Of a stretch of 64,000 nt of DNA, positions 3,723 to 56,266 are shown piece after piece. A program made the position numbers and the translations under genes. The DNA is from Methylotenera sp. (lineage in GTDB: Bacteria > Pseudomonadota > Gammaproteobacteria > Burkholderiales > Methylophilaceae). The notes beneath the pieces are model-generated. The model was not told where the DNA came from. It saw only the letters and a program-made list of their open reading frames with translations, and searched no databases. Numbering within the stretch: the first letter of the stretch is position 1; the number at the start of each line of letters is the position of its first letter. Location: positions 12,349-76,348 of the forward strand of contig JAUSAG010000036.1 in NCBI GenBank assembly GCA_030652995.1. Direction: 5' to 3'.

Positions 3723-4373
3723 ATGCAACAACCTTTAATAATAAGGCATTTGGGCGTGACAGAGTTTGAAGCCATCAGCCTTGCCATGCAAACGTTTACT
3801 GCAGCGCGCACCGGCAGCACCCCGGATGAAGTCTGGCTAACTGAACATCCTCCGGTCTATACATTAGGCCTTAACCGTAAAAATGTGCGTCAACCTATGC
3901 GTGATGATATCACCGTTATTAATACAGATCGTGGTGGAAAAATCACTTTTCATGGTCCGGGCCAAGTCATCATTTATGTGCTATTGGATTTAACACGGCG
4001 CAAGCTCAATATCCGTAGCCTAGTTAGCTTGCTCGAAAATACGGTGATAGAATTATTGGCAGATTACGATGTCATTGCCACGTCACAAAAAGAGGCCCCT
4101 GGCGTTTATGTACAACTTAAAGACGCTGGAATAGCAAAAATCGCGTCACTTGGTTTACGTATCAAAAATAATTGCTGTTATCATGGATTAAGTCTTAATG
4201 TTGAGATGGATTTAACTCCGTTTGAGGCGATAGATCCATGTGGCTACGCGGGTTTGAAGGTCATAAAAACTAAAGATTTAGGCATTACGGCAAATACACA
4301 AACATTAGGTGAGTTGTTGGTACAGAAACTTACCGCTAAATTAGAACATTTGCATGAGTCATTGGGCTCATGA
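3723..4373 (+). CDS. lipB: Octanoyltransferase LipB
   Basis: [42 protein letters not shown] and IDPCG motifs. Confidence 0.96.
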
Positions 4374-4386
4374 TACGGAAATAAGC

Positions 4387-5352
4387 ATGACTAACGCTAC
4401 CCCCACTAAAGTTGCCAGCGCCAAAATCGCCGGAGTAAAAGAAATTGACGCGGCAAAAACTTCGCGTATTCCAATCAAAATCATTCCGCAACCGATTCAA
4501 CGCAAACCAGAATGGATACGCATGAAGGCGCCCGATGGCGCACGTTATCAAGAAATAAAACGGGTGTTGCGTGACAACAATCTGCATACCGTGTGCGAAG
4601 AAGCCAGCTGCCCCAATATCGGAGAATGCTTTAGTAGCGGCACAGCAACTTTTATGATTTTGGGTGACATTTGTACGCGGCGCTGTCCGTTTTGCGACGT
4701 GGCCCACGGCAAACCGCTACCACCTGATGTCAATGAGCCAGAAAACCTTGCTCGCACCATTGCACAAATGCAACTTAAATACGTGGTGATTACCAGTGTA
4801 GATCGTGACGATTTACTCGATGGAGGTGCGCAGCACTTTGTGGACTGTATCGTTGCCGTGCGTGCGCAGTCTCCCGATATCAAAATAGAAATTCTAGTGC
4901 CGGATTTTCGTGGTCGCCTAGATATTGCCCTGCAGATTTTAAGCAAGGCACCGCCCGATGTCATGAATCATAATCTGGAGACGATCCCACGGCTCTATAA
5001 ACAAGCAAGACCAGGCTCGGATTATCAGAATTCGCTCAATTTACTCAAGGCATTTAACGAGATTTATCCACACATCCCGACAAAGTCAGGCTTAATGCTA
5101 GGGCTTGGTGAAACAGATGACGAAATTTTAACCGTGATGCAAGATTTACGCGCACACAACGTAAGCATGCTCACATTAGGCCAATATTTACAACCAAGTA
5201 TTCATCACCATCCTGTGATGCGTTACGTTGATCCGAAAATTTTTGAAACATTAAAGCTAAAAGCCGATGCCATGGGCTTTAATAATACCGCCAGCGGCCC
5301 CATGGTAAGAAGTAGTTATCACGCTGACGCACAAGCGCATCAAGTCGTGTAG
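4387..5352 (+). CDS. lipA: Lipoyl synthase LipA (radical SAM)
   Basis: [12 protein letters not shown] and CTRRCPFC cluster motifs plus C-terminal RSSYHA. ATG at 4387 (MTNAT) chosen as start. Confidence 0.97.
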
Positions 5353-5467
5353 CTTTTTGCAACCTCGATGAAATGAAGTGTATGAGGTTAAGCAGGCAAG
5401 TCAGGTAGTGACAGCTCGAAAATTGAGGTTACAAAGCGCCTACAAAAAGCTTAAATAAAGGTAGATT

Positions 5468-6778
5468 ATGGTTCCGCATTTAACCACCGCACTTAATGGC
5501 CCGCTGCTGGATTTAGAAAAAAGCATGTTAGAGGCCATGCCAAACATTGAGCATTGGTTTCGCACCCAATGGCTAGAATATGCAGCGCCATTTTATGCCT
5601 CGGTTGATTTACGCAATGCGGGCTTTAAGTTAGCGCCTGTGGATACCAATTTATTCCCGGCTGGCTTTAATAATCTTAACCCGGATTTTTTGCACTTGAG
5701 TGTGCAGGCGGCAATGGTAGCGATAGAAAAAATATGCCCTGAAGCACATCGACTACTGATTATTCCTGAAAACCATACGCGCAATACCTACTACTTACGC
5801 AACGTACTTGAGCTTGCCAACATATTGAAGCAGGCGGGTATGGAAGTCAGAATAGGCTCTATTTCACCTGAAATTACTACGCCGACCAAACTTGAAACGC
5901 ACGATGGCCAGTATTTGTTGTTAGAGCCTGTGGTGCGTGTTGGCAACCGTATTAAATTACAGAGTTTTGAATCCAATGAACTGTCGCTAAAAGAATTCGA
6001 TAGCTGCGCCATTTTGCTCAATAATGACTTGTCTGGCGGCATTCCAGAAATACTAAAGAATCTGGAGCAGGATTTAATTCCACCACTCTACGCGGGCTGG
6101 AGTACACGCCGTAAATCACAACATTTTGCAGCCTACAACCGAGTAGCGGCTGATTTTTCAGCCCTTTTAGGCATTGATGAGTGGCTAATTAACCCCTACT
6201 TTGACACTTGCGGTGACATTGATTTTAATGCGCGTACAGGTGAAGATTGCCTTGCCATTAAAGTTGAACAGTTACTCGCAAAAATAAAAATTAAATACGC
6301 GCAATATGGCGTGACACAAGCGCCATTTGTGATTGTTAAGGCAAACGCTGGTACTTATGGCATGGGCATCATGACGGTAAAATCGCCCGACGATGTTCGA
6401 GGCTTAAACCGTAAAACCCGTAATAAAATGTCGGTAGTAAAAGAGGGGTTGGAAGTCACTGAAGTGATTATTCAAGAAGGCGTCTATACTTTTGAGAGCA
6501 TTAACGAAGCGGTTGCCGAACCTGTGGTATATATGATGGATCACTTTGTGATTGGCGGTTTTTATCGAGTGCACACTGGGCGTGCCATTGATGAAAACTT
6601 AAACGCGCCGGGCTCACATTTTGTACCGTTGGCCTTTGAAAAACCTTGCACTTTGCCTGACTGTGCGGGTGCGCCCGATGCAACACCTAATCGTTTTTAT
6701 GCATACGGCGTAGTCGCACGTTTGGCTTTGTTGGCTGCGGCAATTGAGTTGCAGGAGCAAGATCCGCTGAACCGATAA
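5468..6778 (+). CDS. gshA: Glutamate--cysteine ligase (betaproteobacterial GshA type)
   Basis: MVPHLTTAL start, FYASVDLRNAGFKLAPVDTNLFP, GTYGMGIM, GGFYRVH and NLNAPG; directly upstream of gshB. Confidence 0.93.
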   Translation: MVPHLTTALNGPLLDLEKSMLEAMPNIEHWFRTQWLEYAAPFYASVDLRNAGFKLAPVDTNLFPAGFNNLNPDFLHLSVQAAMVAIEKICPEAHRLLIIPENHTRNTYYLRNVLELANILKQAGMEVRIGSISPEITTPTKLETHDGQYLLLEPVVRVGNRIKLQSFESNELSLKEFDSCAILLNNDLSGGIPEILKNLEQDLIPPLYAGWSTRRKSQHFAAYNRVAADFSALLGIDEWLINPYFDTCGDIDFNARTGEDCLAIKVEQLLAKIKIKYAQYGVTQAPFVIVKANAGTYGMGIMTVKSPDDVRGLNRKTRNKMSVVKEGLEVTEVIIQEGVYTFESINEAVAEPVVYMMDHFVIGGFYRVHTGRAIDENLNAPGSHFVPLAFEKPCTLPDCAGAPDATPNRFYAYGVVARLALLAAAIELQEQDPLNR

Positions 6779-6853
6779 AAGTGTTGTAGAAATACTTTTA
6801 AAACATACCCAACGCGGGTGTAACAGATAGATTGATTTTTTGATAAGACACAG

Positions 6854-7852
6854 ATGAAACTACTATTTATTCTTGACCCACTTTCTAGCCTAAAAAGCTA
6901 CAAGGATACCAGCCTTGCCATCATGCGCGAGGCGAGTCAGCGTGGATATGAACTGTTTGTGAGCATGCAACACGACCTGTTCTTGCGAGGAAATATAGCG
7001 AGAATTAGTGCAAAAAAATTTATATTTACTGAGCAGAGTTTTTCAACCGAACCAGCGCTTAAATACGCACCCGCAGATTTTTCTGCCATTATCATGCGCA
7101 AAGACCCACCGTTTGATAACGAATATCTATACAGCACTTATTTGCTCGAAATTGCCGTGAGCCAAGGTGCAAAGGTTTATAACAACCCGACTGCTATTCG
7201 AAGCTGGAATGAAAAACTCTCTGTTACGCGCTTTGCACAATTTTCGCCTGAGTTTTTGGTAACGGCAAATAATGTGTTAATTCGAGATTTTTTAAATACA
7301 CATAAAGATATTGTAGTAAAGCCTTTAGACGGCATGGGTGGTAGTAGCATCTTTAGACTTACGTTAACCGACCCGAATATAAGCGTGATACTGGAAACCA
7401 TCACCCAATATGGCACACGCACCATTATGGCGCAACGTTATCTGCCCGCTATTTTGCAAGGTGACAAACGCATTATCGTGATTGATGGTGAACCATTACC
7501 TTACGCACTGGCGCGCATCCCACTCGCTGGCGAAACCCGTGGCAATTTAGCTGCCGGCGGCACAGGTGTTGCGCAACCACTCAACGCACGTGACCATGAA
7601 ATTGCCATCACCGTTGGTAAAATACTTAAACAAGAAGGGCTGTTTTTAGTCGGTCTTGATGTGATAGGTGAGCATTTAACCGAAATCAACGTCACCAGCC
7701 CCACTGGTATGGTAGAAATTGCTGTGCAGACAGACTGTAAGCCAGCCGGTGTTTTTATGGATGCATTGGCATTAAATCTGAAAGTTGCGCTAGAGCGTGA
7801 TGGCGCCGCTGCAACGGTAGCCTTGATGCAGCATAGCGAAATCGAGGTTTAA
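6854..7852 (+). CDS. gshB: Glutathione synthetase
   Basis: MRKDPPFD, KPLDGMGG, GDKRI, RGNLAAGG and EINVTSPTG motifs. Confidence 0.96.
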   Translation: MKLLFILDPLSSLKSYKDTSLAIMREASQRGYELFVSMQHDLFLRGNIARISAKKFIFTEQSFSTEPALKYAPADFSAIIMRKDPPFDNEYLYSTYLLEIAVSQGAKVYNNPTAIRSWNEKLSVTRFAQFSPEFLVTANNVLIRDFLNTHKDIVVKPLDGMGGSSIFRLTLTDPNISVILETITQYGTRTIMAQRYLPAILQGDKRIIVIDGEPLPYALARIPLAGETRGNLAAGGTGVAQPLNARDHEIAITVGKILKQEGLFLVGLDVIGEHLTEINVTSPTGMVEIAVQTDCKPAGVFMDALALNLKVALERDGAAATVALMQHSEIEV

Positions 7853-10590: not shown

Positions 10591-11256
10591 TTATGCCTCT
10601 AAAGCTATGTCAATATAACTATTCACCTCTACTCCATTTTTTTTGGCTGGTATAAACACCAGTTTTTTAACTCGCGCTTCAATTTCCGCATAAAAAATTT
10701 GCTCTGAATTGCTTATATCCAGGTTGACTATCTCGTCTACGCTACCATTTTTATCAATAAAAATTCTTAACTGATATACAACCAACAGTTTATTGGTACT
10801 TGTTTGTATTGGCGGCTCAATACCATAAACTGGTATTGCTGTTATATCAACATCGCTAGGTTTTAAATAATGATTCAGCAGACTATCATTGCTAGAGCCT
10901 AGTTGATTTTGAGCTACCTTAATTACAGGCAACTCTAATTTTTTCTTCAACGGCTTGATTTGATTTTCATGGCTAATTTTTGCCGATGCGTTGATATCGT
11001 CATTATTATTAGCATTCTCAAGATATTGAGAATGCTCCGTTAATGCTAACTCTCTTTCTAACCGCAACAACTTTGGCGGGCTTAAAATTAAAAAACCCAC
11101 CTGAAGCACGTTGTTTTTTCTCAGGCTGGGTTTTGCTAACTCAGTGTCAATATTCTGCTTAGTAAAATTTGTATTGATAGCTAAATTTAAATTAGCTATC
11201 AAAAATACATGGATCAGCACAGACACAAGTACAGCAATTGGTAGCTTGTAACGCAT
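10591..11256 (-). CDS. Hypothetical membrane-anchored protein with TonB C-terminal-like domain
   Basis: N-terminal TM (IAVLVSVLIHVFL) and a C-terminal LRIFIDKNGSVDEI...FIPAKKNGVEV segment resembling TonB_C; AT-rich. Confidence 0.6.
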   Translation of the reverse strand: MRYKLPIAVLVSVLIHVFLIANLNLAINTNFTKQNIDTELAKPSLRKNNVLQVGFLILSPPKLLRLERELALTEHSQYLENANNNDDINASAKISHENQIKPLKKKLELPVIKVAQNQLGSSNDSLLNHYLKPSDVDITAIPVYGIEPPIQTSTNKLLVVYQLRIFIDKNGSVDEIVNLDISNSEQIFYAEIEARVKKLVFIPAKKNGVEVNSYIDIALEA

Positions 11257-15605: not shown

Positions 15606-16793
15606 CTATTTCAACATCAATGTATTGCGTAGCGGAATCACCGCTTCAAAACTACGATAGCGGAAAGTAGTGGGGGCTAAATTAACGGTTACTGGAGCCG
15701 CAGTATCCCCAAATAACTGTAGTGTTGTAGCACTGACCGTTTCACGTTCCAGCAAGGCGGTACGCATCACTACACCAATCTTAATCGCTTTAATTCTTTT
15801 TAAGCTTGTAGCTGCGGCTAATGTTCCCGCAAGCAAAGTAGCCGATGAAAATGTGCCTGTTGGGGCAACCCATGTTAATGATGACGTAGCAGGGCTTGTA
15901 TCCACTCCATAAAGTGCATGCATTTGATAAACATCATCTACATAAACACTAGGGTTAGGATTCGCCGCGGTTGTAGTAGTTTGCCTATTTTGCATTAGGT
16001 CATATTTCATCAAAGTGTTATTGGCACCCACTGCAAACATATTAAGATTAGGCGCCTGTCCCAAATTAATAACCTGTGAAGTTGTTGTGAAGTCTGCAAC
16101 AGAGCGTAAATTGACCGTGGCAGTATAGTAAGATCCGCCTAAACCAACATTACTACCGCCAGCTATCGGATTAAAAGTTGAGGCAACTTGTTGTACTAAA
16201 CAAGGTGAAACACTCGCGGCAGGTTTATCCGCCAGCAAGACCACGTCGTTAGCACGAACGCCCGCATGGTTCACCAATTTAAGTGTTGCTACAGTAGGTG
16301 ATGCTGAAAAACTAGTAGGAGACTCTCCCAAACCTGCATTACCCGACATGGTGACTATCACGTCCCCACCCACCCCTGCAGCACCGTCATATATAATTAC
16401 GGGCGCCACTCTAACTGTGGCGCTTACCGCGTTAAAGGGTGTCGGAAAAGCTACGGTAGCTGGAATGAGCTGTGTACCGCCCAATGCCATGTCAAGCCTG
16501 CATCCAAAAGCATAATCAGCACCCACTTTGTCACCGCCTCCTGTAAAGCCACTGCCGGCACTTCTTACAAGCTTATCTAATTGATAAATTGTATAACTAC
16601 CTGCTTGATTAATGTCGTTTAAAGACGTTGTGGTTCTTTTTCTACCTTCGTTAACGTTCAATACGTTATAAACCACTAAAGACATGAGTAAGCCTATGAC
16701 CAAACCCACCATAAGCTCAATAAGAGAAAATCCCTTTTGTTTTACGGAATGCCACTTAAGTAATTGTGTGTCGTATAGGGTTTTCATTAACAT
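15606..16793 (-). CDS. pilW: Type IV minor pilin PilW
   Basis: KG|FSLIELMVGLVIG prepilin motif and C-terminal FRYRSFEAVIPLRN. Confidence 0.88.
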   Translation of the reverse strand: MLMKTLYDTQLLKWHSVKQKGFSLIELMVGLVIGLLMSLVVYNVLNVNEGRKRTTTSLNDINQAGSYTIYQLDKLVRSAGSGFTGGGDKVGADYAFGCRLDMALGGTQLIPATVAFPTPFNAVSATVRVAPVIIYDGAAGVGGDVIVTMSGNAGLGESPTSFSASPTVATLKLVNHAGVRANDVVLLADKPAASVSPCLVQQVASTFNPIAGGSNVGLGGSYYTATVNLRSVADFTTTSQVINLGQAPNLNMFAVGANNTLMKYDLMQNRQTTTTAANPNPSVYVDDVYQMHALYGVDTSPATSSLTWVAPTGTFSSATLLAGTLAAATSLKRIKAIKIGVVMRTALLERETVSATTLQLFGDTAAPVTVNLAPTTFRYRSFEAVIPLRNTLMLK

Positions 16794-16859
16794 TAAATTC
16801 CTAATTCATCTCTCGTTTTTTATTACTTGATCTGTAGCGTTTACTGCCTAGCTCAATCA

Positions 16860-17267
16860 TTATTGAACAAATACACTAGTCTCATATTTACTTGCATTAT
16901 CAGTACCAAGCTTAGTTGGTGCTTTCCACGTCACCGTCACCGTTGCAAGACCGGCAACCTCAGTCACATCACCAGCGGCGTTAGATAATATTGAGTTTTG
17001 CACCTTCAACTTCCAAGCAGTAATGTCTCCAGATATTGCCGCTGAAGCAATAGTACTGGTTTTTTTAGCCCACATTTGAGACACCATATCATTAGCTAAA
17101 ATTGATGCAACGGCTCGGTCTTGAGAATTAATTGAGTTCTGAGTTGCAACTGCTTGCATCCCTACTAAACCCAATACACCAAAAGCAAAAAGGAGGGTGG
17201 AAATTAGCACTTCTAATAACACCGCACCTGAATTTTTTTTTCTTAACCTGCTGTATTTATTAGTCAT
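16860..17267 (-). CDS. pilV: Type IV minor pilin PilV
   Basis: SG|AVLLEVLISTLLFAFGVLGLVGMQA motif. Confidence 0.87.
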   Translation of the reverse strand: MTNKYSRLRKKNSGAVLLEVLISTLLFAFGVLGLVGMQAVATQNSINSQDRAVASILANDMVSQMWAKKTSTIASAAISGDITAWKLKVQNSILSNAAGDVTEVAGLATVTVTWKAPTKLGTDNASKYETSVFVQ

Positions 17268-17268
17268 A

Positions 17269-17811
17269 TCAACACCCGTCCGCTGCAGTTGCTAAGCTTT
17301 TATTTGGATCACACATCCTGACCCCCCCTGAACTAGAGACAACAACCCTTAATGCTCTAGCTCCTTTTGGATTAGTAATGTTATAAGTAACCAAGCTTGG
17401 GCTGTTTGTAAGCCTGCCTATAGCGTTAAATCTTATTTCTGCTGTCGATGCAGTAACAATAACGCTACCGCCCTCACTATTCAACACCGCACCTTGTATG
17501 TAACCGTCGGCATCGGCCTGAGTTGGAACAACCACTCTTACACCCCAGTTGCTACCCGTTACTGTGGCCGCAGCAGTAGATGAGGGTTGCACATTAGTAA
17601 CGAAAAAGGCAACCTGACGCCCTTTATTAACCGCCTCTGCTTGAGCAAGCCGAATACCGTTTTGTAATGACTCGGTAATTGTTCTTGTTTTAGCGTCTTG
17701 AATCCAGGTAGAAAAACTAGGCATTGCAAAAGCCATAATGATGCCAAAGACTAAAACCGCGATCATCAACTCAATTAACGAAAAGCCTAAATTTTTATTT
17801 ATTTTTTTCAT
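17269..17811 (-). CDS. fimT: GspH/FimT family minor pilin
   Basis: LG|FSLIELMIAV, LRLAQAEA-like GIRLAQAEA, FNAIGR and C-terminal GGVRMCDP. ATG at 17811. Confidence 0.85.
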   Translation of the reverse strand: MKKINKNLGFSLIELMIAVLVFGIIMAFAMPSFSTWIQDAKTRTITESLQNGIRLAQAEAVNKGRQVAFFVTNVQPSSTAAATVTGSNWGVRVVVPTQADADGYIQGAVLNSEGGSVIVTASTAEIRFNAIGRLTNSPSLVTYNITNPKGARALRVVVSSSGGVRMCDPNKSLATAADGC

Positions 17812-17821
17812 AATTTTTTGA

Positions 17822-18283
17822 TTAACAAGTTGCACCTTTTTTCATTAACCAACATGCTGCAGGGGTAGTACCCCAGCCAGTCTTTACTCCTGTTGTACGT
17901 TGTGTATTTGCCTGATCAATGGTGTATATGAAGTCAGAGACGATGCCGCTACCTGTAGCAGTAATGGTATATGTAGCTGCTGTTAAGTTTGAACATGCAA
18001 AACTGAACTTGCCCGCATTTGTGATTGCCGCACATGGAGATGTAAAAGCACCTACTGTTTGATAATCACGGTTATCTTGAAAATGCTGCTCTAACTTTGC
18101 CCGAGTTGCTGAGAGTGTGCTGGTGGCATCAGGCAAACTCGCCCTTATTATGTAATCTGTATAAGCAGGAATAGCAATGCTAGCCAAAATACCAATAATC
18201 GCTACGACTATTAAGAGTTCTATCAGTGTAAAGCCTTTAGATCGAGCCCAATTCTTACGTTGAAAATTTGCTAGGTTACACAT
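17822..18283 (-). CDS. pilE: Type IV minor pilin PilE
   Basis: KG|FTLIELLIVVAIIGILASIAIPAY, LEQHFQDNR, YTITATG and C-terminal CW..K.G..C. Confidence 0.88.
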   Translation of the reverse strand: MCNLANFQRKNWARSKGFTLIELLIVVAIIGILASIAIPAYTDYIIRASLPDATSTLSATRAKLEQHFQDNRDYQTVGAFTSPCAAITNAGKFSFACSNLTAATYTITATGSGIVSDFIYTIDQANTQRTTGVKTGWGTTPAACWLMKKGATC

Positions 18284-18348
18284 TTTATTTCCCCTTTTTA
18301 CTTAATATGGATAATGCCCTTGGTGAGTGGCGATGTCTATTGCCAACC

Positions 18349-18379
18349 GATAGTCGGTAATTTTTACTGAATGAGCGGT
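18349..18379 (-). promoter_or_regulatory. Candidate LytTR/AlgR-type direct repeats upstream of the pilE operon
   Basis: On the minus strand, ACCGCTCATT and ACCGACTATC repeat with a 21-bp period and resemble the AlgR site ACCGTTCGTC. Confidence 0.35.
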
Positions 18380-18487
18380 TAGCCTGGCTACTATAGGTGG
18401 AGCGTAAAGTACACCATTACAAAACAATGGTAGAATAAACCCAATTTTCAACACTCCCTACTAATCGTTTGTTCACCATCATTTTCT

Positions 18488-18616
18488 ATGAAAATATCAC
18501 CCAAAAAAATCATGACGTTATTGCTCGTAAGTTATATTCTAACGGCATGCGGCACTAAAGGGCCGCTTTATATTCCTGAGCAGCAGTATCCGCAACCAAC
18601 GCCGACCGGCAAATAG
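18488..18616 (+). CDS. lptM: Small lipoprotein LptM (YifL/LppL family)
   Basis: 42-aa ORF not in the track: MKISPKKIMTLLLVSYILTACGTKGPLYIPEQQYPQPTPTGK. Lipobox LTAC followed by G.KGPLY.P; canonical position before lysA. Confidence 0.9.
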   Translation: MKISPKKIMTLLLVSYILTACGTKGPLYIPEQQYPQPTPTGK

Positions 18617-18648
18617 AACCTGCACCATTCAATCTTTAAATGGCTTAA

Positions 18649-19908
18649 GTGATGACCTTGAATACCTTTACGCTTAAAAACAATACGCTACATGCTGAAA
18701 ACGTAGCGCTTAATAATATTGCCAGTGAGTTTGGCACGCCTTGTTATGTATATTCTAAATCTGCATTGACGCAAGCATTTGCGCGCTTTAGTGCTGGTTT
18801 TAAAGATGCGAACCATTTGGTATGCTTTGCGGTTAAATCCAACCCAAGCCTTGCTATTTTGAACCTGTTTGCCAAGCTTGGCGCAGGGTTTGATATCGTG
18901 TCTGGCGGTGAGCTAGCGCGTGTTTTAGCCGCAGGGGGCGACCCGAAAAAAATCGTGTTCTCGGGCGTGGGTAAAACTGAAGTTGAAATGCAAGCGGCAT
19001 TAAATGCGGGTATTTTTTGCTTTAACGTAGAGTCAGTCAGTGAGTTGCTACGTTTAAATGATGTGGCTAACTTTATGGGTAAAGTGGCGCCAGTATCTCT
19101 ACGTGTAAACCCCAATGTGGATGCCAAAACGCACCCTTATATTTCTACCGGCTTAAAAAATAATAAATTCGGTGTGGCATATGAAGACGCACTGGACATT
19201 TATTTGCAAGCGGCGGCCATGCCTAACATTGCGGTACATGGTGTGGATTGCCATATTGGCTCGCAAATTACTGAGTTATCGCCATTTTTAGATGCGTTTG
19301 ACCGCGTATTGGCGCTGGTTGATGCGCTGGAACAACATGGTATTCATATTCAGCACATTGATGCGGGTGGCGGCATAGGCATTTGTTATAACGATGAAAC
19401 GCCGCCAGCATTTGATGATTACGCTACTGCAATGTTGGCAAAACTAGGTGAGCGTAACATTAAGTTAGTGTTTGAACCAGGCCGCGCCTTAGTTGGCAAT
19501 GCGGGGGTTTTGCTGACCAAGGTTGAATACTTAAAACAAACTGAATCAAAGAATTTTGCCATTGTAGATGCGGCAATGAACGATTTGATGCGCCCCGCGC
19601 TATACGATGCGTATCATGCAATACAAGCGGTACAACCCCGCGATGCTGATACCGTTAACTATGAAATCGTAGGCCCTGTATGTGAAAGTGGTGACTTTTT
19701 AGGCCACGACAGAATGCTGGCACTGCAAGAAGGGGATTTGTTGGCGATTATGTCTGCAGGTGCTTATGGCATGAGCATGGCTAGCAATTACAACACTAGG
19801 CCGCGCGCGGCTGAGGTGATGGTGGATGGCGACCAAACCCACCTTATTCGGGAGCGAGAGAAAATTGCCGATTTGTTCGCGTTAGAAAAAATACTGCCAG
19901 AAGCTTAA
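18649..19908 (+). CDS. lysA: Diaminopimelate decarboxylase
   Basis: FAVKSN (PLP Lys), DIVSGGEL, HIGSQ, EPGR, GPVCESGD and SNYNTRPR motifs. Confidence 0.97.
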   Translation: MMTLNTFTLKNNTLHAENVALNNIASEFGTPCYVYSKSALTQAFARFSAGFKDANHLVCFAVKSNPSLAILNLFAKLGAGFDIVSGGELARVLAAGGDPKKIVFSGVGKTEVEMQAALNAGIFCFNVESVSELLRLNDVANFMGKVAPVSLRVNPNVDAKTHPYISTGLKNNKFGVAYEDALDIYLQAAAMPNIAVHGVDCHIGSQITELSPFLDAFDRVLALVDALEQHGIHIQHIDAGGGIGICYNDETPPAFDDYATAMLAKLGERNIKLVFEPGRALVGNAGVLLTKVEYLKQTESKNFAIVDAAMNDLMRPALYDAYHAIQAVQPRDADTVNYEIVGPVCESGDFLGHDRMLALQEGDLLAIMSAGAYGMSMASNYNTRPRAAEVMVDGDQTHLIREREKIADLFALEKILPEA

Positions 19909-27017: not shown

Positions 27018-30000
27018 TTAAGAGAGATTTGGCGCAAGCCAGCGTTCTAGATAGTCTTTTGGTAGCCCTCTACGTTGTGCCATATCCAGCCATTGGTCTT
27101 CACCAATTTTATCAACACTAAAGTATTTAGCTTGGCGGTGCGCAAAGTAAAAGCCAGAAACTGCCGCTGCAGGTTGCATGGCGAATGATTCGGTGAGTGT
27201 CATGCCGATTTCATCGCATTGCAGTAAGTTGAACATATCGGTTTTTACGGTATGGTCGGGGCAGGCGGGGTAGCCAGGTGCGGGGCGAATGCCTTGATAA
27301 GATTCTTTAATCAGCGCATCAACTGGCAACGTTTCATTTGCCGCGTAACCCCATAAATCAGTGCGGATGCGCTCATGCATGTATTCAGCAAAAGCTTCGG
27401 CAAGCCTATCCGCCAGCGATTTGAACATAATGCCGCTGTAATCATCATGCGCATCGGCAAAACGTTTTTCAATTTTCTCTGTCCCTAAACCTGCCGTCAC
27501 CGCGAATAAGCCGATGTAATCTGCGGCCTCACCTTTAGGCGCAATTAAGTCACTTAAACATTGATTTGGGCGCGGCACGCCATCAATCACTGGTTTTACG
27601 CTTTGCTGACGCATGCCGTAGTAAGTAAAGGCGACTTGATTGCGACTGTCGTCGGTGTAGATTTCAATATCGTCATCATTCACTGTGTTAGCAGGCATGA
27701 GCGCAATGACGCCATTGGCGCTGAGCCATCTGCCATCAATGATTTTTTTGAGCATGGCTTGCGCTTCAGCAAATACTTTAGTTGCCGCGTCACCTACCAC
27801 ATGGTCACTTAAAATCGCGGGATAGCTACCGGCTAAATCCCAAGTTTGAAAGAACGGCGACCAGTCGATATATTTGGCGATTAAGCTTAAATCAATGTTC
27901 TTAAACACGCGGCGACCAATAAATTTTGGTTTTACGGGTGTATTGTCGCCATCAAAAGCAAGTTTCATTTTGTTCTTACGGGCATCGGCAATCGTCAGCA
28001 AAGGCACGCCTTTTTTATTGGCGTGTTGTGCGCGTGCTTTTTCGTAATCTGTATTGATATCGGCAATATAAGCATCGCGCGTTCCTGGCGTAAGTAGCGA
28101 TTGCATCACCGCCACCGAGCGCGAGGCATCAGGCACATAAATAATTGGGCCGTCATAAAACGGGGCAATTTTAACGGCGGTGTGGGCACGCGAAGTCGTG
28201 GCGCCACCAATCAGTAAGGGCATTTTTAAATCATGAAAATACGGGTCGCGTTGCATCTCTTTTGCCACATACGCCATTTCTTCCAACGACGGCGTAATCA
28301 ACCCCGATAAGCCAATAATATCTGCATTCTCGGCCTTGGCCATCGCCAAAATTTCAGCCGCGGGCACCATCACGCCCATGTTGACCACTTCGAAGTTATT
28401 GCATTGCAACACTACCGAGACGATATTTTTACCAATGTCATGCACGTCGCCTTTTACTGTGGCAATCACCACTTTACCTTTTGGTTTAGCGACAACGCCG
28501 GTGCGCTCTTGCTCTAGCGCTTTCTCTGCTTCAATGAACGGGATTAAATGCGCTACGGCTTGCTTCATCACGCGGGCAGACTTCACCACTTGCGGCAGAA
28601 ACATCTTGCCCTGACCGAATAAATCGCCGACCACGTTCATGCCGTCCATCAAGGGGCCTTCAATCACGTGGATGGGTCTGCCACCACTTGCCATGACTGC
28701 CGCGCGCGCTTCTTCGGTGTCGTCCACAATAAAGTCGGTAATGCCATGCACCATGGCGTGGCTCAGGCGTTTAGCCACTGGCGCGGGGGCTTCAGCCGTG
28801 CCGCGCCACTCTAATGTTGCAGCTTCTTTTTTGCCTCCGGCCACTAGCGTACTGGCAATTTCTATCATGCGCTCGGTCGGGGCGAGTAGATTATTCTCAT
28901 CGATAATACGGTTGAGTACCACGTCTTCCACACGTTGTTTTAGCTCTGGAGCGAGGTCATCGTACACACCCATCATGCCGGCATTAACAATACCCATGGT
29001 CATGCCCGCTTTAATGGCGTGATATAAAAACACGGTATGAATCGCTTCACGCGCAGGGTCGTTGCCCCTAAAACTGAAACTGACATTAGATACGCCGCCC
29101 GATATTTTGGCATGCGGTAAATTTTGCTTAATCCAGCGCGTAGCTTCAATAAAGTCCACGGCGTAATTGTTGTGCTCTTCAATCCCTGTCGCGATGGCGA
29201 AAATATTGGGGTCAAAAATAATGTCTTCTGGCGGGAAATCAATCCCTACCAATAAGTCATAGGCACGTTTGCAGATTTCTGTTTTTCGCGCGTAAGTATC
29301 GGCCTGACCCTTTTCGTCAAACGCCATCACAATAATGGACGCACCGTAACGGCGACACAGTTTAGCCTGGCGCAAAAACTCCGCCTCGCCTTCTTTCATC
29401 GAGATTGAATTAACAATCGACTTGCCCTGCACGCATTTCAAGCCGGCTTCTATCACGCTCCACTTGCTGGAATCGATCATAATCGGCACGCGCGCAATAT
29501 CAGGCTCACTGGCGATTAAGTTTAAAAAGTGCGTCATGGCCTGCACGGCATCCAGCATGCCTTCATCCATGTTAATGTCGATGACTTGTGCACCGTTTTC
29601 AACCTGCTGCCGCGCCACGCTCAAGGCTTCTTCAAACTGACCATTGATAATCATGCGTGCAAAGGCTTTGCTGCCGGTAACGTTGGTGCGCTCGCCCACA
29701 TTGACGAATAGTGAATTCTCGTCAATGATAAATGGCTCCAAGCCTGAGAGTTTGGTGACCGGTGCAAGTGTCGGCACCTGACGTGGCGGCAGGTTTTTAA
29801 TAGCCTCAAAAATCGACTTAATGTGCGGCGGGGTAGTGCCACAGCAACCACCCGCGATGTTGATAAAGCCACTGGTAGCGAATTCTTTTATTAGGCTGGA
29901 CGTCACATCAGGCGTTTCATCAAAGCCGGTATCGCTCATTGGATTGGGTAGCCCTGCATTCGGGTAAATACACACAAAAGTATCGGCAATTTTTGAAAGC

Positions 30001-30809
30001 TCCTCTGCATAAGGACGCATTAAAGTTGCGCCCAAAGCACAGTTTAAACCGATGGTGATTGGCTTAGCATGACGTACCGAATGCCAAAATGCCGTCACAG
30101 TTTGACCAGATAAAATACGCCCTGAAGCATCAGTCACCGTACCTGAAATCATAATCGGGTAACGCTGTCCGCTCTCTTCAAAAAATGTATCGATAGCAAA
30201 TAAAGCTGCCTTGCAATTGAGCGTATCAAAGATGGTTTCCACCATTAAGATATCAGCACCACCTTCTACCAGTGCTCGCGTTTGCTCTAAGTAAGCATTC
30301 ACCAACTGATCAAAACTCACATTACGCGATGCGGGGTCATTTACATCAGGCGAGATGCTGGCGGTTTTTGGTGTGGGCCCCAACGTGCCTGCCACAAAGC
30401 GCGGTTTATCTGGTGTGCTGTATTTATCGCAGGCTGTGCGGGCAAGCTTGGCCGATTGCACATTCATCTCGTAAACAAGATGCGCCATGTGGTAATCATC
30501 CTGCGCCACACTGGTGGCACCGAAGGTGTTGGTTTCGATAATGTCGGCGCCTGCGGCCAAGTATTGCTCGTGAATTTCTTGAATAATTTGCGGTTGTGTC
30601 AGGCTTAACAGCTCGTTATTGCCTTTTACAAACAGCTGGCGCTCGCCTGTCGGCGCAGCAAAGTCAGCAAAACGCTCACCGCGATAATCGGCCTCGGTCT
30701 GCTTATATTGCTGAATCATGGTGCCCATAGCGCCATCCAGTATAAGGATGCGCTGTTTGAGCAGTGCTCGAAGTTTTATTTCTGTTGCAGATGCGATTGA
30801 TTGGTTCAT
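27018..30809 (-). CDS. metH: Cobalamin-dependent methionine synthase
   Basis: [35 protein letters not shown] and [10 protein letters not shown] motifs; 1263 aa. Confidence 0.98.
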
Positions 30810-30875: not shown

Positions 30876-32302
30876 CTAAATTGCACCACGTCGATACTGC
30901 ACTGCTTCGGCAATATGCGCGGGTTTTATATCAGCGTCACAGCTCAAATCGGCAATAGTACGCGCTACTTTTAAAATACGATGATACGCACGCGCAGATA
31001 AATTGAGTCGTGAAATAGCGGTTTTGAGTAATGTTAACCCTGCGTCATCGGCTTTGCAGTAGTGCTAAATCTCCTTGGTCCCCAGTAGGTTGTTGGGCTT
31101 GCCTTGACGTGCTAACTGTAATGACCGTGCCTTTTCTAATCGTGTTCTTACTACATGTGAGTGTTCACTATCGCTCGCTTGAATCAGCTCATCTTCTTTG
31201 AGGCAGGAACTTCAATATGCAAATCAATAAGGTCTAACAAAGGCCCGGAAGTTTTAGCTTTATAGCGCGAAACTTGATCCGGCGTGCAACGACATTTGTT
31301 ATTATAATGACCCAAATAGCCACAAGACATGGGTTCATGGCCGCAATTAGCTGAAATCTAGCGGGGTATTCCGCCTGCCGTGCCGCGCGTCAAATAGTGA
31401 TGTGTCCCCTTTCAAGTGGCTCGAGCAAAACCTCTAATACTTTTCGATCAAATATAGACCTCATCTAAAAATAAAACACCATTATGTGCCAGACTAATTT
31501 CCCCTGGACGCTGAATGCCACCATCACCCACCAAAGCCACGCCTGACGCGGTATGATGCGGTGCGCGATAGGGTCTGCGTTTCCAGTTTTCAAGCTTATA
31601 ACTGCCATTTAATGATTGAATCGTGGCAGCTTCCAGCGCTTCATCCTCGGTCATTCTCGGCAAAATGCCCGCAAAACGGCTGGCTAACATGCTTTTACCT
31701 GTGCCTGGCGGGCCGCTCAAAATGACGCTATGTCAGCACGCTGCGGAGATCTCTAACGCCCGCTTGGGCATACTTTGCGCTTTTACGTCGCTAAAAACTG
31801 GATAAGAAAATTCCTGCGGTTGCTCGTTAGGGGCTAGTTGAGTCAGTGCAGTATGACCGCTTAAATGCGCGCAAACCTCAAGCAGTGATTTTGCCGGGTA
31901 GATAATGGCATCGCGCACCAAGGTAGCTTCAGTCGCACTCATTTGGGGTAAGATAAATGCACGTTTTGGTGCATTTTGTAGTAATGCGCCGTTATTCGCA
32001 TGACTCATCATGCTGGATGTCATGGCTAGCGCACCTCTTATTGGGCGCAGTTCGCCCGTTAGTGCTAATTCACCAGCAAATTCATAGTGGCTCAACGCTG
32101 CAGAAGGTATCTGCCCAGATGCCGCTAAAATACCTAAGGCAATAGGTAAGTCGTAACGTCCGCTTTCTTTGGGTAAATCTGCAGGCGCAAGGTTCACGGT
32201 AATCCGTCGTGCTGGAAACTCAAACTGCGCGGTCAGTAAAGCCGCACGCACGCGGTCTTTGCTTTCCTTAACTTCGGTTTCAGGTAAGCCCACAATGGTC
32301 AA
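30876..32302 (-). pseudogene. comM: comM/yifB (Mg-chelatase-like AAA+ ATPase), main body
   Basis: TIVGLPETEVKESKDRVRAA, NLAPADLPKESGRYDL, Walker A GPPGTGKSML, GEISLAHNGVLFLDE, AAMNP and SARAYHRILKVARTIADL. In-frame stops at 31733-35, 31390-92 and 31065-67 plus frameshifts. Confidence 0.92.
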
Positions 32303-33123
32303 TATTGATATAGTCTTACATGCTGATTTGGCACGTAATGTATTAGCCTGGAAATGTGTCGGTGTATGTTAAGTTGTTATGGTAAATATACGGGGATTTT
32401 ACACCACATAATTAATTGGCAGAGTCGTGCTTTTGTTTTCTGAAATCCCACGGTGGCATAGCATTTGTATCTGCCCACAAGCCTAGTTTGTCACGTTGCG
32501 CCAAATATTCTGCGTCAGCGTAAATTGAGCGATCTTCAACTTCTTGCTCATTTTGATATTTCTTATAATGCCACGCTAGGCCACGCTGGATTTGATGAAG
32601 ATTTACATCTTTACCATTGAACATTATTTTACCAATGATTCGCTGGTATCTGTCACGTTTATTAAATTCAACAGTGACGACTTTACCGCCTATTTCATCA
32701 TCTAAAGCTTGCTTTGATTTATTACCGAACGCCTGCTTTTTCTCAGGAGCATCAATGCCTGACAGCCTGATTTTATGTAGTTCATTATCGTTAGTTAGCA
32801 CATTCACCGTGTCACCATCTGTGACTTTTATGACCTTGCCTTGTAACTGATCGGCAAGACTGGTGAGTGTTGTGAACGCCAAGATTAATGCTAATATTGT
32901 TTTCAATGTGCCAGTCCGTTGGTGCTAGATTGTAGTGTGGGGTGATGGAAATCTGCCCGCCAATTTAACCATTGAAAAACAATCAGTTACATACCAGTGC
33001 TAGCAGTGTGAGATGTTTTGTTAACGAGTTTTTTTGTAGATTAAATATCCATCAAAGTATTCTTTGAATCAACCTTGATGCAGTAGACACTTTTAAGCTA
33101 ATTGTTGTCCTGTTTACTTATTT
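32300..33123. mobile_element. ~820-bp foreign insert within the comM 5' region (remnant of an integrative element)
   Basis: Separates comM codons 1-15 from the TIVGLPE segment and contains a nuclease gene; no integrase in the insert. Confidence 0.65.
32412..32906 (-). CDS. Thermonuclease (SNase) family protein with signal peptide
   Basis: VIKVTDGDT, RLSGIDAPE, DRYQR and GLAWHY...GLW motifs; N-terminal MKTILALILAFTTLTSLA. TTG start. Confidence 0.93.
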   Translation of the reverse strand: MKTILALILAFTTLTSLADQLQGKVIKVTDGDTVNVLTNDNELHKIRLSGIDAPEKKQAFGNKSKQALDDEIGGKVVTVEFNKRDRYQRIIGKIMFNGKDVNLHQIQRGLAWHYKKYQNEQEVEDRSIYADAEYLAQRDKLGLWADTNAMPPWDFRKQKHDSAN

Positions 33124-33169
33124 GCTCCATACCGCTTAGCGCGAGGCTATACAATACAGCTAAGCTCAT
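33124..33169 (-). pseudogene. comM: comM/yifB N-terminal fragment
   Basis: Reads MSLAVLYSLALSGME, the typical YifB N-terminus, starting 10 bp downstream of the ubiK stop. Confidence 0.8.
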
Positions 33170-33179
33170 CAAAGTAGCC

Positions 33180-33419
33180 TCATGGTTTTTGTTTTGCTTC
33201 TAATTCTGTTAACTTGATCTCTAATAATTCCAGCTTTTGCCGCGTATTACGTAGCACCTCCGCCTGCACATCAAACTCCTCACGTGAAACAAACTCCATT
33301 TTGGTGAACACGCCCTTTAATAGTGCATTGATGTTTTTCTCCGCATCCTCCAATGGAGAGTTTTTAATCATCTCTTTGATTTTATTAGATATTCCATTTA
33401 CTTTTTCTATACTCAACAT
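33180..33419 (-). CDS. ubiK: UbiK/BMFP accessory factor (YqiC family)
   Basis: KMEFVSREEFDVQAEVLRNTRQKLELLE coiled coil; canonical position upstream of comM. Confidence 0.9.
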   Translation of the reverse strand: MLSIEKVNGISNKIKEMIKNSPLEDAEKNINALLKGVFTKMEFVSREEFDVQAEVLRNTRQKLELLEIKLTELEAKQKP

Positions 33420-55599: not shown

Positions 55600-56266
55600 G
55601 TAGTAGGTCAAAAATGAGCGTTGATATTCAAGTTATTTCGACTCACTCTGGCTCACTGTGGCGGCAACGGCATGCTGTTACTTTTAAACTTAAATTAAAT
55701 TGTAATTGCCGTAAATTAAGTGTATAAATTAGGTGTGGCTCTTAAAACATAAGTTTTTAAATCTTACCGTTTATCAGGAGACGTTTATCGACACTTCAAT
55801 CATTAATCATCTTTAGTAACCACTTAAGCCAGTGATCAATGACTGGCAATATCGGCATCCCATAAGCCGAAACACAACGCCGCTTTAATGCGGCGTTAGT
55901 ATTTTTATTGGGTGAGGTAACTAGGTTAACAATACATCTGCTACGGTACATTGGGCCGGCGAGCCCACATGCCATTGAATGCAGATAGCCCACAAGTTCA
56001 ATATTTGCAAATTGGTTAGTGCGCCTAATCTATATCAGCAGAATCGCACTAGGTCAACGATGACTCATCGGCAAGGCTTGAGTAAACTCATGGCATTGCT
56101 TACTGCCTTATTCACTGCACTAACGCGTTAGATTCTACCATGCTTGGCGCCCGTGATATTTAACATGCAGATAATCTCAGTCATAGCTGTACGTTTTTGC
56201 CAACTGTTCTGCTTTTACATGTAGCTAGGCATGTAGCTTCTGGATAATTTTCCAGCTTTTTTAAAG

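Follow-up and report, generated by a model that had tools for sequence, protein, structure and literature searches.

An intact nuclease gene in the probable remnant of a genomic island within a decayed comM of Methylotenera

We analyzed a 64,000-nucleotide stretch of DNA from Methylotenera sp. (contig JAUSAG010000036.1, positions 12,349 to 76,348; hereafter the window), in which the competence gene comM is interrupted by an 826-bp insert. On the minus strand of the window ubiK (33180-33419), the broken comM (30876-33169) and metH (27018-30809) follow each other, and this ubiK-comM-metH synteny is kept in 70 or more related loci. A genome scan with the comM fragment as query yielded 80 Methylophilaceae loci (loci are referred to by L numbers), and in about 70 of the 80 comM is uninterrupted. 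The nearest one, L001, from a metagenome-assembled genome (MAG) of Methylotenera, has the same gene order and an intact comM of 507 amino acids (aa) without an island, and its metH differs from that of the window by a synonymous divergence (dS) of 0.15. This intact orthologue matches TIGR00368 (2e-188) and the ComM structure PDB 8RXD (4.5e-160), and the comM fragments of the window still match PF13541 (4.7e-39, ChlI) and PF01078 (5.4e-36, Mg_chelatase).

Alignment with the intact comM of L001 fixed both junctions of the insert. A preliminary description of this DNA had placed the comM N-terminus right after ubiK, and this was confirmed: an ATG at 33169 opens 44 nt of comM, which encode MSLAVLYSLALSGM plus 2 nt and are identical to L001 at 42 of 44 positions (blastn E=3e-14). 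The same description had the gene resume some 820 bp further on at 32299, which agrees with our alignment, as the comM homology ends at 33126, restarts at ACC (T33) at 32299 and continues to the stop codon at 30876. The gap of 826 bp without comM homology (32300-33125) has a GC content of ~0.39, compared with ~0.48-0.50 in comM. It replaces comM nt 45-96, i.e. ~52 nt from the third position of codon 15 to codon 32 (49 nt if the two T at 32302-32301 are assigned to comM), and the earlier estimate of about 17 lost codons was thus close. A search for terminal direct or inverted repeats around the insert gave chance-level short matches only. No target duplication was found by the repeat search either, in line with what had been noted before and as expected for site-specific recombination.

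Two features go beyond the preliminary description, namely an intact nuclease gene of 164 aa in the insert and six further inactivating lesions in the rest of comM (Table 1). On the branch leading to the window, comM has 24 synonymous and 17 non-synonymous changes, whereas the corresponding counts on the L001 and L085 branches are 51:7 and 54:3 (Fisher p=9e-6 versus the window), and comM of the window has therefore been evolving without constraint for some time. Residues 1-32 are part of the Lon-like domain of ComM, and residues 15-32 are missing in the window. ComM depends on the Lon-like domain to oligomerise and to translocate DNA, and E22 and S26 lie at the interface between subunits (PMC11612176).

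The 164-aa protein is encoded by the single open reading frame (ORF) of the insert and belongs to the SNase/thermonuclease family, with a PF00565 match of 85 bits (cut-off 21) over the full profile (1-107). In an alignment with staphylococcal thermonuclease made with HMMER (3SR1, E=5e-10, low identity), the segments DGDT, RLxGIDAPE and DRYQR fall on corresponding residues, and position 41 is Ala instead of Thr. These segments match D21, R35, D40, E43 and R87, the Ca2+-binding and catalytic residues of staphylococcal nuclease. By inspection, the N-terminus suggests a signal peptide and export is predicted. Many relatives at 70-99% identity occur in Methylotenera assemblies. The ratio of non-synonymous to synonymous divergence (dN/dS) to relatives is 0.08-0.12, and a value of ~0.1 shows that the gene is under purifying selection. 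The nuclease most likely acts on DNA in the periplasm or outside the cell, where it would degrade incoming DNA or scavenge DNA; this function of the kept gene, anti-transformation or DNA scavenging, we infer from family membership and context. A simple promoter scan gave no minus-strand promoter for the gene, an Rfam scan of the insert gave no RNA family, and PADLOC gave a generic SNc-domain match only. When metagenomes were scanned with the nuclease, most matches were thermonucleases of 50-60% identity located in unrelated contexts.

Over 815 bp the insert is homologous to the right end of islands of >10-20 kb. These islands adjoin comM at exactly the same nucleotide in four further lineages of Methylophilaceae (L037, L085-87, L090-91 and L092-94). 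In these loci the nuclease gene is located directly 5' of comM T33, at 78-87% aa identity to the window, and is followed by the same tail of ~110 bp, inside which L092-94 have an extra HNH gene. The islands end in a nearly invariant terminal arm, GTAAGACTATATC(A/T)ATATTG next to AC, which lies within the highly conserved 3' end of the leader alignment described below and is presumed to be the recombinase-binding arm of the right junction. Further 5' of the nuclease gene the cargo (>10 kb) differs between L037, L085, L090 and L092, and includes methyltransferases and restriction-like genes, a 5-hydroxymethyldeoxyuridine (5-hmdU) kinase with a MazG_C protein, and UvrD, NERD and PLD proteins. Evidently, Methylotenera and other Methylophilaceae harbour a family of islands of >10-20 kb that integrate immediately to the left of the AC in comM T33 and have a conserved right end, made up of the gene for the SNase-family nuclease (predicted to be secreted), a ~45-bp motif and the 22-bp terminal arm.

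The homology to L085 also shows what the window has lost. Window positions 33064-32250 match L085 9828-10653, in a collinear alignment of the insert with the final ~1.1 kb of that island. The left edge of the insert matches a 34-bp segment that lies ~600 bp 5' of the nuclease gene in L085, and where the window has comM codon 15, L085 runs on leftwards as island DNA. Between this segment and the remnant of a 105-aa island ORF, ~395 bp of L085-type DNA are missing in the window.

The ~45-bp motif is found at island module boundaries and may serve in recombination, as an operator or as a 5' leader. In the form GGTGTAACAT.CCCGTATATGTACCATAACA.CTACCTACACC it makes a direct repeat around the HNH gene of L092 (10502-10531 and 11296-11325); two copies precede the recombinase gene in L095 (~10820-10945), and a diverged copy is located in the polymerase ORF of L186 (18520-18549). 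A second motif, ACATCTCACACTGC.C.CACTG, is found at window 33003-33016, ~110 bp 5' of the nuclease gene in the comM-type islands, and downstream of the nuclease gene in comEC-type elements (L088 10595-10608; L095, L101).

The native comM site is an imperfect dyad, GGCTTGCCAAGCTTT-AC-nATTGTTGGCTTGCC, and all junction types diverge just left of the AC of T33. Genes for large serine recombinases (Resolvase, Recombinase and Zn_ribbon_recom domains) begin 33-37 bp from this same AC in L006, L188/189 and L190. The terminal 12-mer of the L006, L188 and L190 elements resembles that of the window, and SNase-family genes occur in the latter two as well, with 50% and 45% identity to that of the window. 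The clade of the window nuclease is otherwise found immediately 5' of a serine recombinase gene (L088/89, L095-97/99 and L101). In those loci the recombinase gene abuts a 5'-truncated comEC, the Competence domain of which starts at profile position 28-34. The order of nuclease and recombinase genes is the same in L098 and probably in the contigs P0003 and P0004. In L095, the DNA immediately 3' of the recombinase gene shows homology to window 32408-32361. Furthermore, the SNase genes of the window and L090 differ by a dS of 0.59, compared with >2 (saturated) for the comM genes of their hosts. The island ends are thus much less diverged than the hosts, which shows that the islands move horizontally.

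Based on these findings we consider it probable, with fairly high confidence, that a site-specific genomic island left its right-hand end, now dead, as the comM insert, which supports the earlier suggestion of a scar left by a partly deleted integrative element. One deletion would have extended from comM nt 45 across the left junction and through nearly the whole island, to ~600 bp 5' of the nuclease gene, and a second deletion of ~395 bp would have taken out the small ORF. Together these would have removed any recombinase and the left attachment site, so that the stub could no longer excise. Lacking residues 15-32, comM would then have drifted neutrally and gained three stop codons and three frameshifts, and the nuclease gene would have stayed under purifying selection after loss of the island. 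As integrating enzyme a large serine recombinase is the most likely candidate, and its gene would lie elsewhere in the island or the enzyme would act in trans; this is inferred and is the weakest link of the reconstruction.

Several observations weigh against this explanation. The island junctions that we read are right junctions only, and it is assumed that intact islands retain comM codons 1-32 at the left junction; when L186 was walked for >20 kb, no ubiK or comM 5' part was found by tblastn or short blastn. The preliminary description had proposed a search for larger elements with the same junction and an integrase. The larger elements are there, and recombinases occur at the same site in L006, L188 and L190, but no serine recombinase was found between the nuclease gene and comM or within 10-20 kb of the nuclease gene in the nuclease-ended islands (L037, L085/L186, L090 and L092). 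Two nuclease-ended islands instead carry a tyrosine integrase (95% identical) together with a family-B DNA polymerase. Finally, intact islands keep an in-frame leader on comM, so the insertion may not inactivate the gene, and the order of events is uncertain. Other searches were also negative. The 10-kb flanks of five nuclease homologues contained no ubiK or comM 5' part, and no second copy of the terminal arm was found in either orientation in the island loci. No recombinase was found in the window insert, as fits a remnant of elements whose relatives carry one. Nothing useful came from scanning IMG/VR for the nuclease, for the L006 recombinase, for the polymerase and integrase of L186 or for the junction pattern.

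Table 1. Features of the comM locus (positions in the window)
Feature	Positions	Strand	Evidence or remarks
metH, downstream neighbour, intact, 1263 aa	27018-30809	-	
comM codons 33-507, pseudogene	30876-32299	-	codon-aware alignment to L001
comM lesion, codon 445, nonsense	31065-31067	-	
comM lesion, codon 399, -1 bp	~31203	-	
comM lesion, codon 357, -1 bp	~31327	-	
comM lesion, codon 336, nonsense	31390-31392	-	
comM lesion, codon 313, -2 bp	~31459	-	
comM lesion, codon 221, nonsense	31733-31735	-	
Terminal arm GTAAGACTATATCAATATTG next to AC, right junction	32298-32319	-	0-1 mismatch in 13/13 loci with the island type
Probable island remnant, 826 bp, GC ~0.39, right-terminal stub	32300-33125	-	DNA alignments to L085, L090, L092, L037; composition
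Decayed island leader (ATG to ATT, +1 frameshift, stop)	32300-32387	-	leader alignment
Core of ~45-bp motif (GGTGTAA.A...CCGTATAT.TACCATAAC)	32376-32405	-	fuzzy search and alignment; at island module boundaries
SNase/thermonuclease-family gene, intact, 164 aa, TTG start, predicted signal peptide (MKTILALILAFTTLTSLA before DQ)	32412-32906	-	PF00565 5.8e-24
Last 8 codons and stop (KNTLMDI, stop) of 105-aa island ORF	33041-33064	-	full ORF at L085 9534-9851
Putative left deletion joint, 34 bp similar to intergenic island DNA at L085 9399-9432	33093-33126	-	blastn 88% over 34 nt
comM 5' stub, nt 1-44 (M1-M14 and 2 nt of codon 15)	33126-33169	-	now reads MSLAVLYSLALSGMEQISKQDNN followed by a stop
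ubiK (BMFP family)	33180-33419	-	Pfam PF04380, 2.8e-20; conserved upstream neighbour of comM

The tyrosine integrases open up for another explanation, which we regard as less probable but as a serious rival. A tyrosine recombinase would integrate the island type of the window, perhaps within a self-replicating element with a family-B polymerase, and the serine-recombinase elements would be unrelated co-users of the hotspot. This is in line with the islands of L085/L186 and L090, which share a 360-aa integrase (PF00589 5.5e-29) at 95% identity even though host comM dS is saturated, with the integrase gene adjoining the polymerase gene; likewise, right ends lacking a recombinase are still horizontally mobile. 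However, 7-13 kb separate the integrase gene from the comM junction, and the island continues on the far side of the gene. The 95% conservation of the integrase, compared with 83-87% for the nuclease end, suggests a separate and younger nested element. In addition, serine-recombinase elements located at the same AC have a similar terminal 12-mer, and the other members of the close nuclease clade all occur in linkage with a serine recombinase.

In L186 (13351-20564) and L090 (1-3961) the integrase gene adjoins a gene for a family-B (protein-primed-like) polymerase and genes for conserved secreted proteins, and together they possibly make up a nested integrative element, capable of self-replication, within the comM islands. 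The serine-recombinase elements of L188 (in comM; 16156-19771) and L191 (next to moaC; 3907-7525) share a backbone of a 151-aa protein with a weak REP_ORF2-G2P match and a ~1005-aa protein without known domain. Among the recombinases looked up, P0146 adjoins moaC and not comM. The comEC-inserted sister elements (L088 10001-14075; L095 10001-14324; L101) leave a 5'-truncated comEC ORF of 525-533 aa, and their cargo is of defence type (SIR2, a DUF87 ATPase, an MvaI/BcnI restriction enzyme with C5 methylase, and Vsr).

Breaks were also seen elsewhere in comM. A second hotspot is located at about residue 225 (AAAGGH / Walker A), where the contigs of L007, L014 and L025 end and where L021 (6570-8342) has a large serine recombinase gene 48 bp after the break. 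To the same hotspot belong L190 (9296-9913), with a comM fragment from aa 33 to ~237 that has elements on both sides, and L057 (2341-5300), where a ~3-kb comM insert encodes a 570-aa PNP_UDP-domain protein and, as the remnant of a Tn7-like element, an N-terminal TnsA-like fragment. A third break, at about residue 308-313, is seen in Methylotenera versatilis 7 (L043, 6834-11878) and in L079 (~6813), and is followed by proteins of 781 and 708 aa with no Pfam match. At the same place the window has the -2 bp lesion and a cluster of substitutions (P314S, E315I) at ~31450-31465, which could be an old footprint.

The second question is what the island does to comM. In islands with an intact comM (L085, L090, L092/94 and L037) an ATG within the ~45-bp motif opens a leader of 27-29 codons, for example MYHNNLPTPTPFSTKPLRTKSCKTISIL, in frame with T33, and the sole length differences in the alignment of these four independent island sequences are -3 and -6 nt. 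The leader kept in frame, together with the conservative L085 comM branch (54:3), suggests that ComM may be given a new head by the island instead of merely being broken, a lead drawn from four sequences. Any leader-fused ComM would be altered, as residues 1-32 belong to the Lon domain. Possibly, although we find it rather unlikely, comM of the window was killed neither by the insertion nor by the deletion, and the leader gave a working or selected re-headed ComM that was lost later, for instance for want of a benefit from transformation. The open leaders and the 54 synonymous versus 3 non-synonymous changes would agree with such a course of events, and the decayed leader of the window fits a gene that was once in use. 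On the other hand, the independent leaders number four, and the leader partly overlaps DNA motifs that are possibly constrained as recombination or regulatory sites. The timing of the insertion on the L085 branch is uncertain, and the leader has no resemblance to residues 1-32 with their Lon-domain strands and interface residues.

Much less probable than either of these is that the short arrangement of ubiK, comM stub, nuclease and comM represents an original small insertion, to which DNA 5' of the nuclease gene was later added to give the large islands, with no island deletion in the lineage of the window. Repeated insertion would give cargo that is wholly different among L037, L085, L090 and L092, as observed. 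The window itself speaks against this, as it keeps the last 8 codons of an ORF that is complete in L085 and 34 bp of the DNA 5' of that ORF, with the ~395 bp between them absent, and as ~52 bp of comM are missing in it, the left half of the attachment dyad among them. Moreover, the nearest host relative (L001) has an intact and empty comM, and islands in hosts of saturated divergence share the same end.

An assembly artefact or a chimeric MAG contig, which the probably metagenomic source and an L041 contig beginning exactly at the junction might bring to mind, can be dismissed for practical purposes, since at least four independent assemblies, read in 14 contigs, agree in their junctions and in all six comM lesions, which excludes misassembly. 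The arrangement is the same in two NCBI MAGs (GCA_030684715.1 and GCA_030692945.1) and two Logan assemblies (SRR13727536 and SRR13727520), which are independent assemblies of a near-identical population with 5 single-nucleotide polymorphisms in 2.6 kb and all indels in common. The adjoining metH is an intact ORF, and the damage in comM is therefore not caused by poor sequence quality. The comM scar is a real feature. Elsewhere in the window, the sole Rfam match is a Methylophilales-1 small RNA (RF03011, 90 bits) at 56014-56125 on the minus strand, which fits the taxonomic placement, and there are no tRNA genes in the 64 kb. L018 has two ubiK-like copies (3802-4035 and 5672-5884) 5' of an intact comM, which may be another rearrangement scar.

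Mobile elements in comM have been described in Acinetobacter, Aggregatibacter, Mannheimia, Francisella, Pseudomonas syringae and Vibrio, and their insertion has been read as protection of the element against its own deletion by transformation (PMC4774983, PMC11441513, PMC12378983). The mention of comM as a hotspot for mobile elements in the preliminary description is borne out by the same studies. The AbaR islands (Tn6022-like) of A. baumannii resemble the islands described here: a large element splits comM and persists in the population, and it has been proposed that the element gains by being cured less often through natural transformation (PMC11441513). They differ in using another position in comM, as the site here is codon 32/33, and the window has a stub only. 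AbaR islands are Tn7-like, with Tns transposition genes (TnsA/B/C) and a 5-bp target duplication. At the site in the window neither Tns genes nor a target duplication were found by domain scan and repeat search, and the TnsA-like fragment was seen at another comM site and in L057 only.

The elements of Croucher et al. 2016 (PMC4774983; PMC12378983) share the recurrent site-specific insertion at one comM position across divergent hosts. Integrase elements at the orthologous position are known from Aggregatibacter, Mannheimia, Francisella, Pseudomonas syringae and A. baumannii and were interpreted as intragenomic conflict with transformation (PMC4774983, PMC12378983). In our case the hosts are environmental methylotrophs and the copy in the window is a degraded remnant. 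The Listeria phage A118/phi10403S is a serine-integrase element inside comK (PMC3556126, PMC12378983), and the related serine-recombinase elements are like it in being located inside a competence gene, and would likewise be without target duplication and potentially reversible by excision. The Listeria elements, however, are excision-competent prophages in a regulator gene of a Gram-positive host, whereas the stub in the window would be irreversible, with recombinase and left junction lost. Element-encoded DNases that lower transformation include YokF of the B. subtilis prophage SPbeta (PMC4774983) as well as IdeA/SxnA of Vibrio integrative and conjugative elements and Dns of Campylobacter CJIE1 (PMC12378983). 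All are secreted or periplasmic nucleases encoded by mobile elements, as is predicted for the nuclease of the window. YokF is of the thermonuclease family, and a large serine recombinase integrates its element; IdeA and Dns are not of the SNase family to which the nuclease of the window belongs. Already known are thus comM as a hotspot for mobile elements, element-encoded DNases and serine-integrase elements in competence genes. What is new is the group of hosts, a conserved nuclease that goes together with insertion into two different competence genes, and a fossil of which the nuclease alone survives.

More speculatively, and with doubt on our part, the islands may be dedicated anti-transformation elements, which integrate in competence genes, carry a junction-proximal nuclease predicted to be secreted and re-head ComM. 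If so, one lineage would target comM and a sister lineage comEC, and the nuclease could destroy incoming DNA. The leader would replace the first 32 residues of ComM, and the re-headed helicase would be kept under selection as a hypomorph or a dominant-negative subunit. The window would then represent a host that retained the nuclease after the rest of the element had died.

Our findings extend the picture of comM as a landing site, drawn from pathogens, to free-living methylotrophs of freshwater and soil. They fit with intragenomic conflict, as one nuclease island family is found in two competence genes and comM is struck at three or more positions by different types of elements. The conserved 60-bp comM site and the cognate serine recombinases are possible integration tools for Methylophilaceae. 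The window would illustrate how such an encounter ends, with the element lost except for one cargo gene, which is kept under selection, and with the competence gene decaying and dead beyond recovery.

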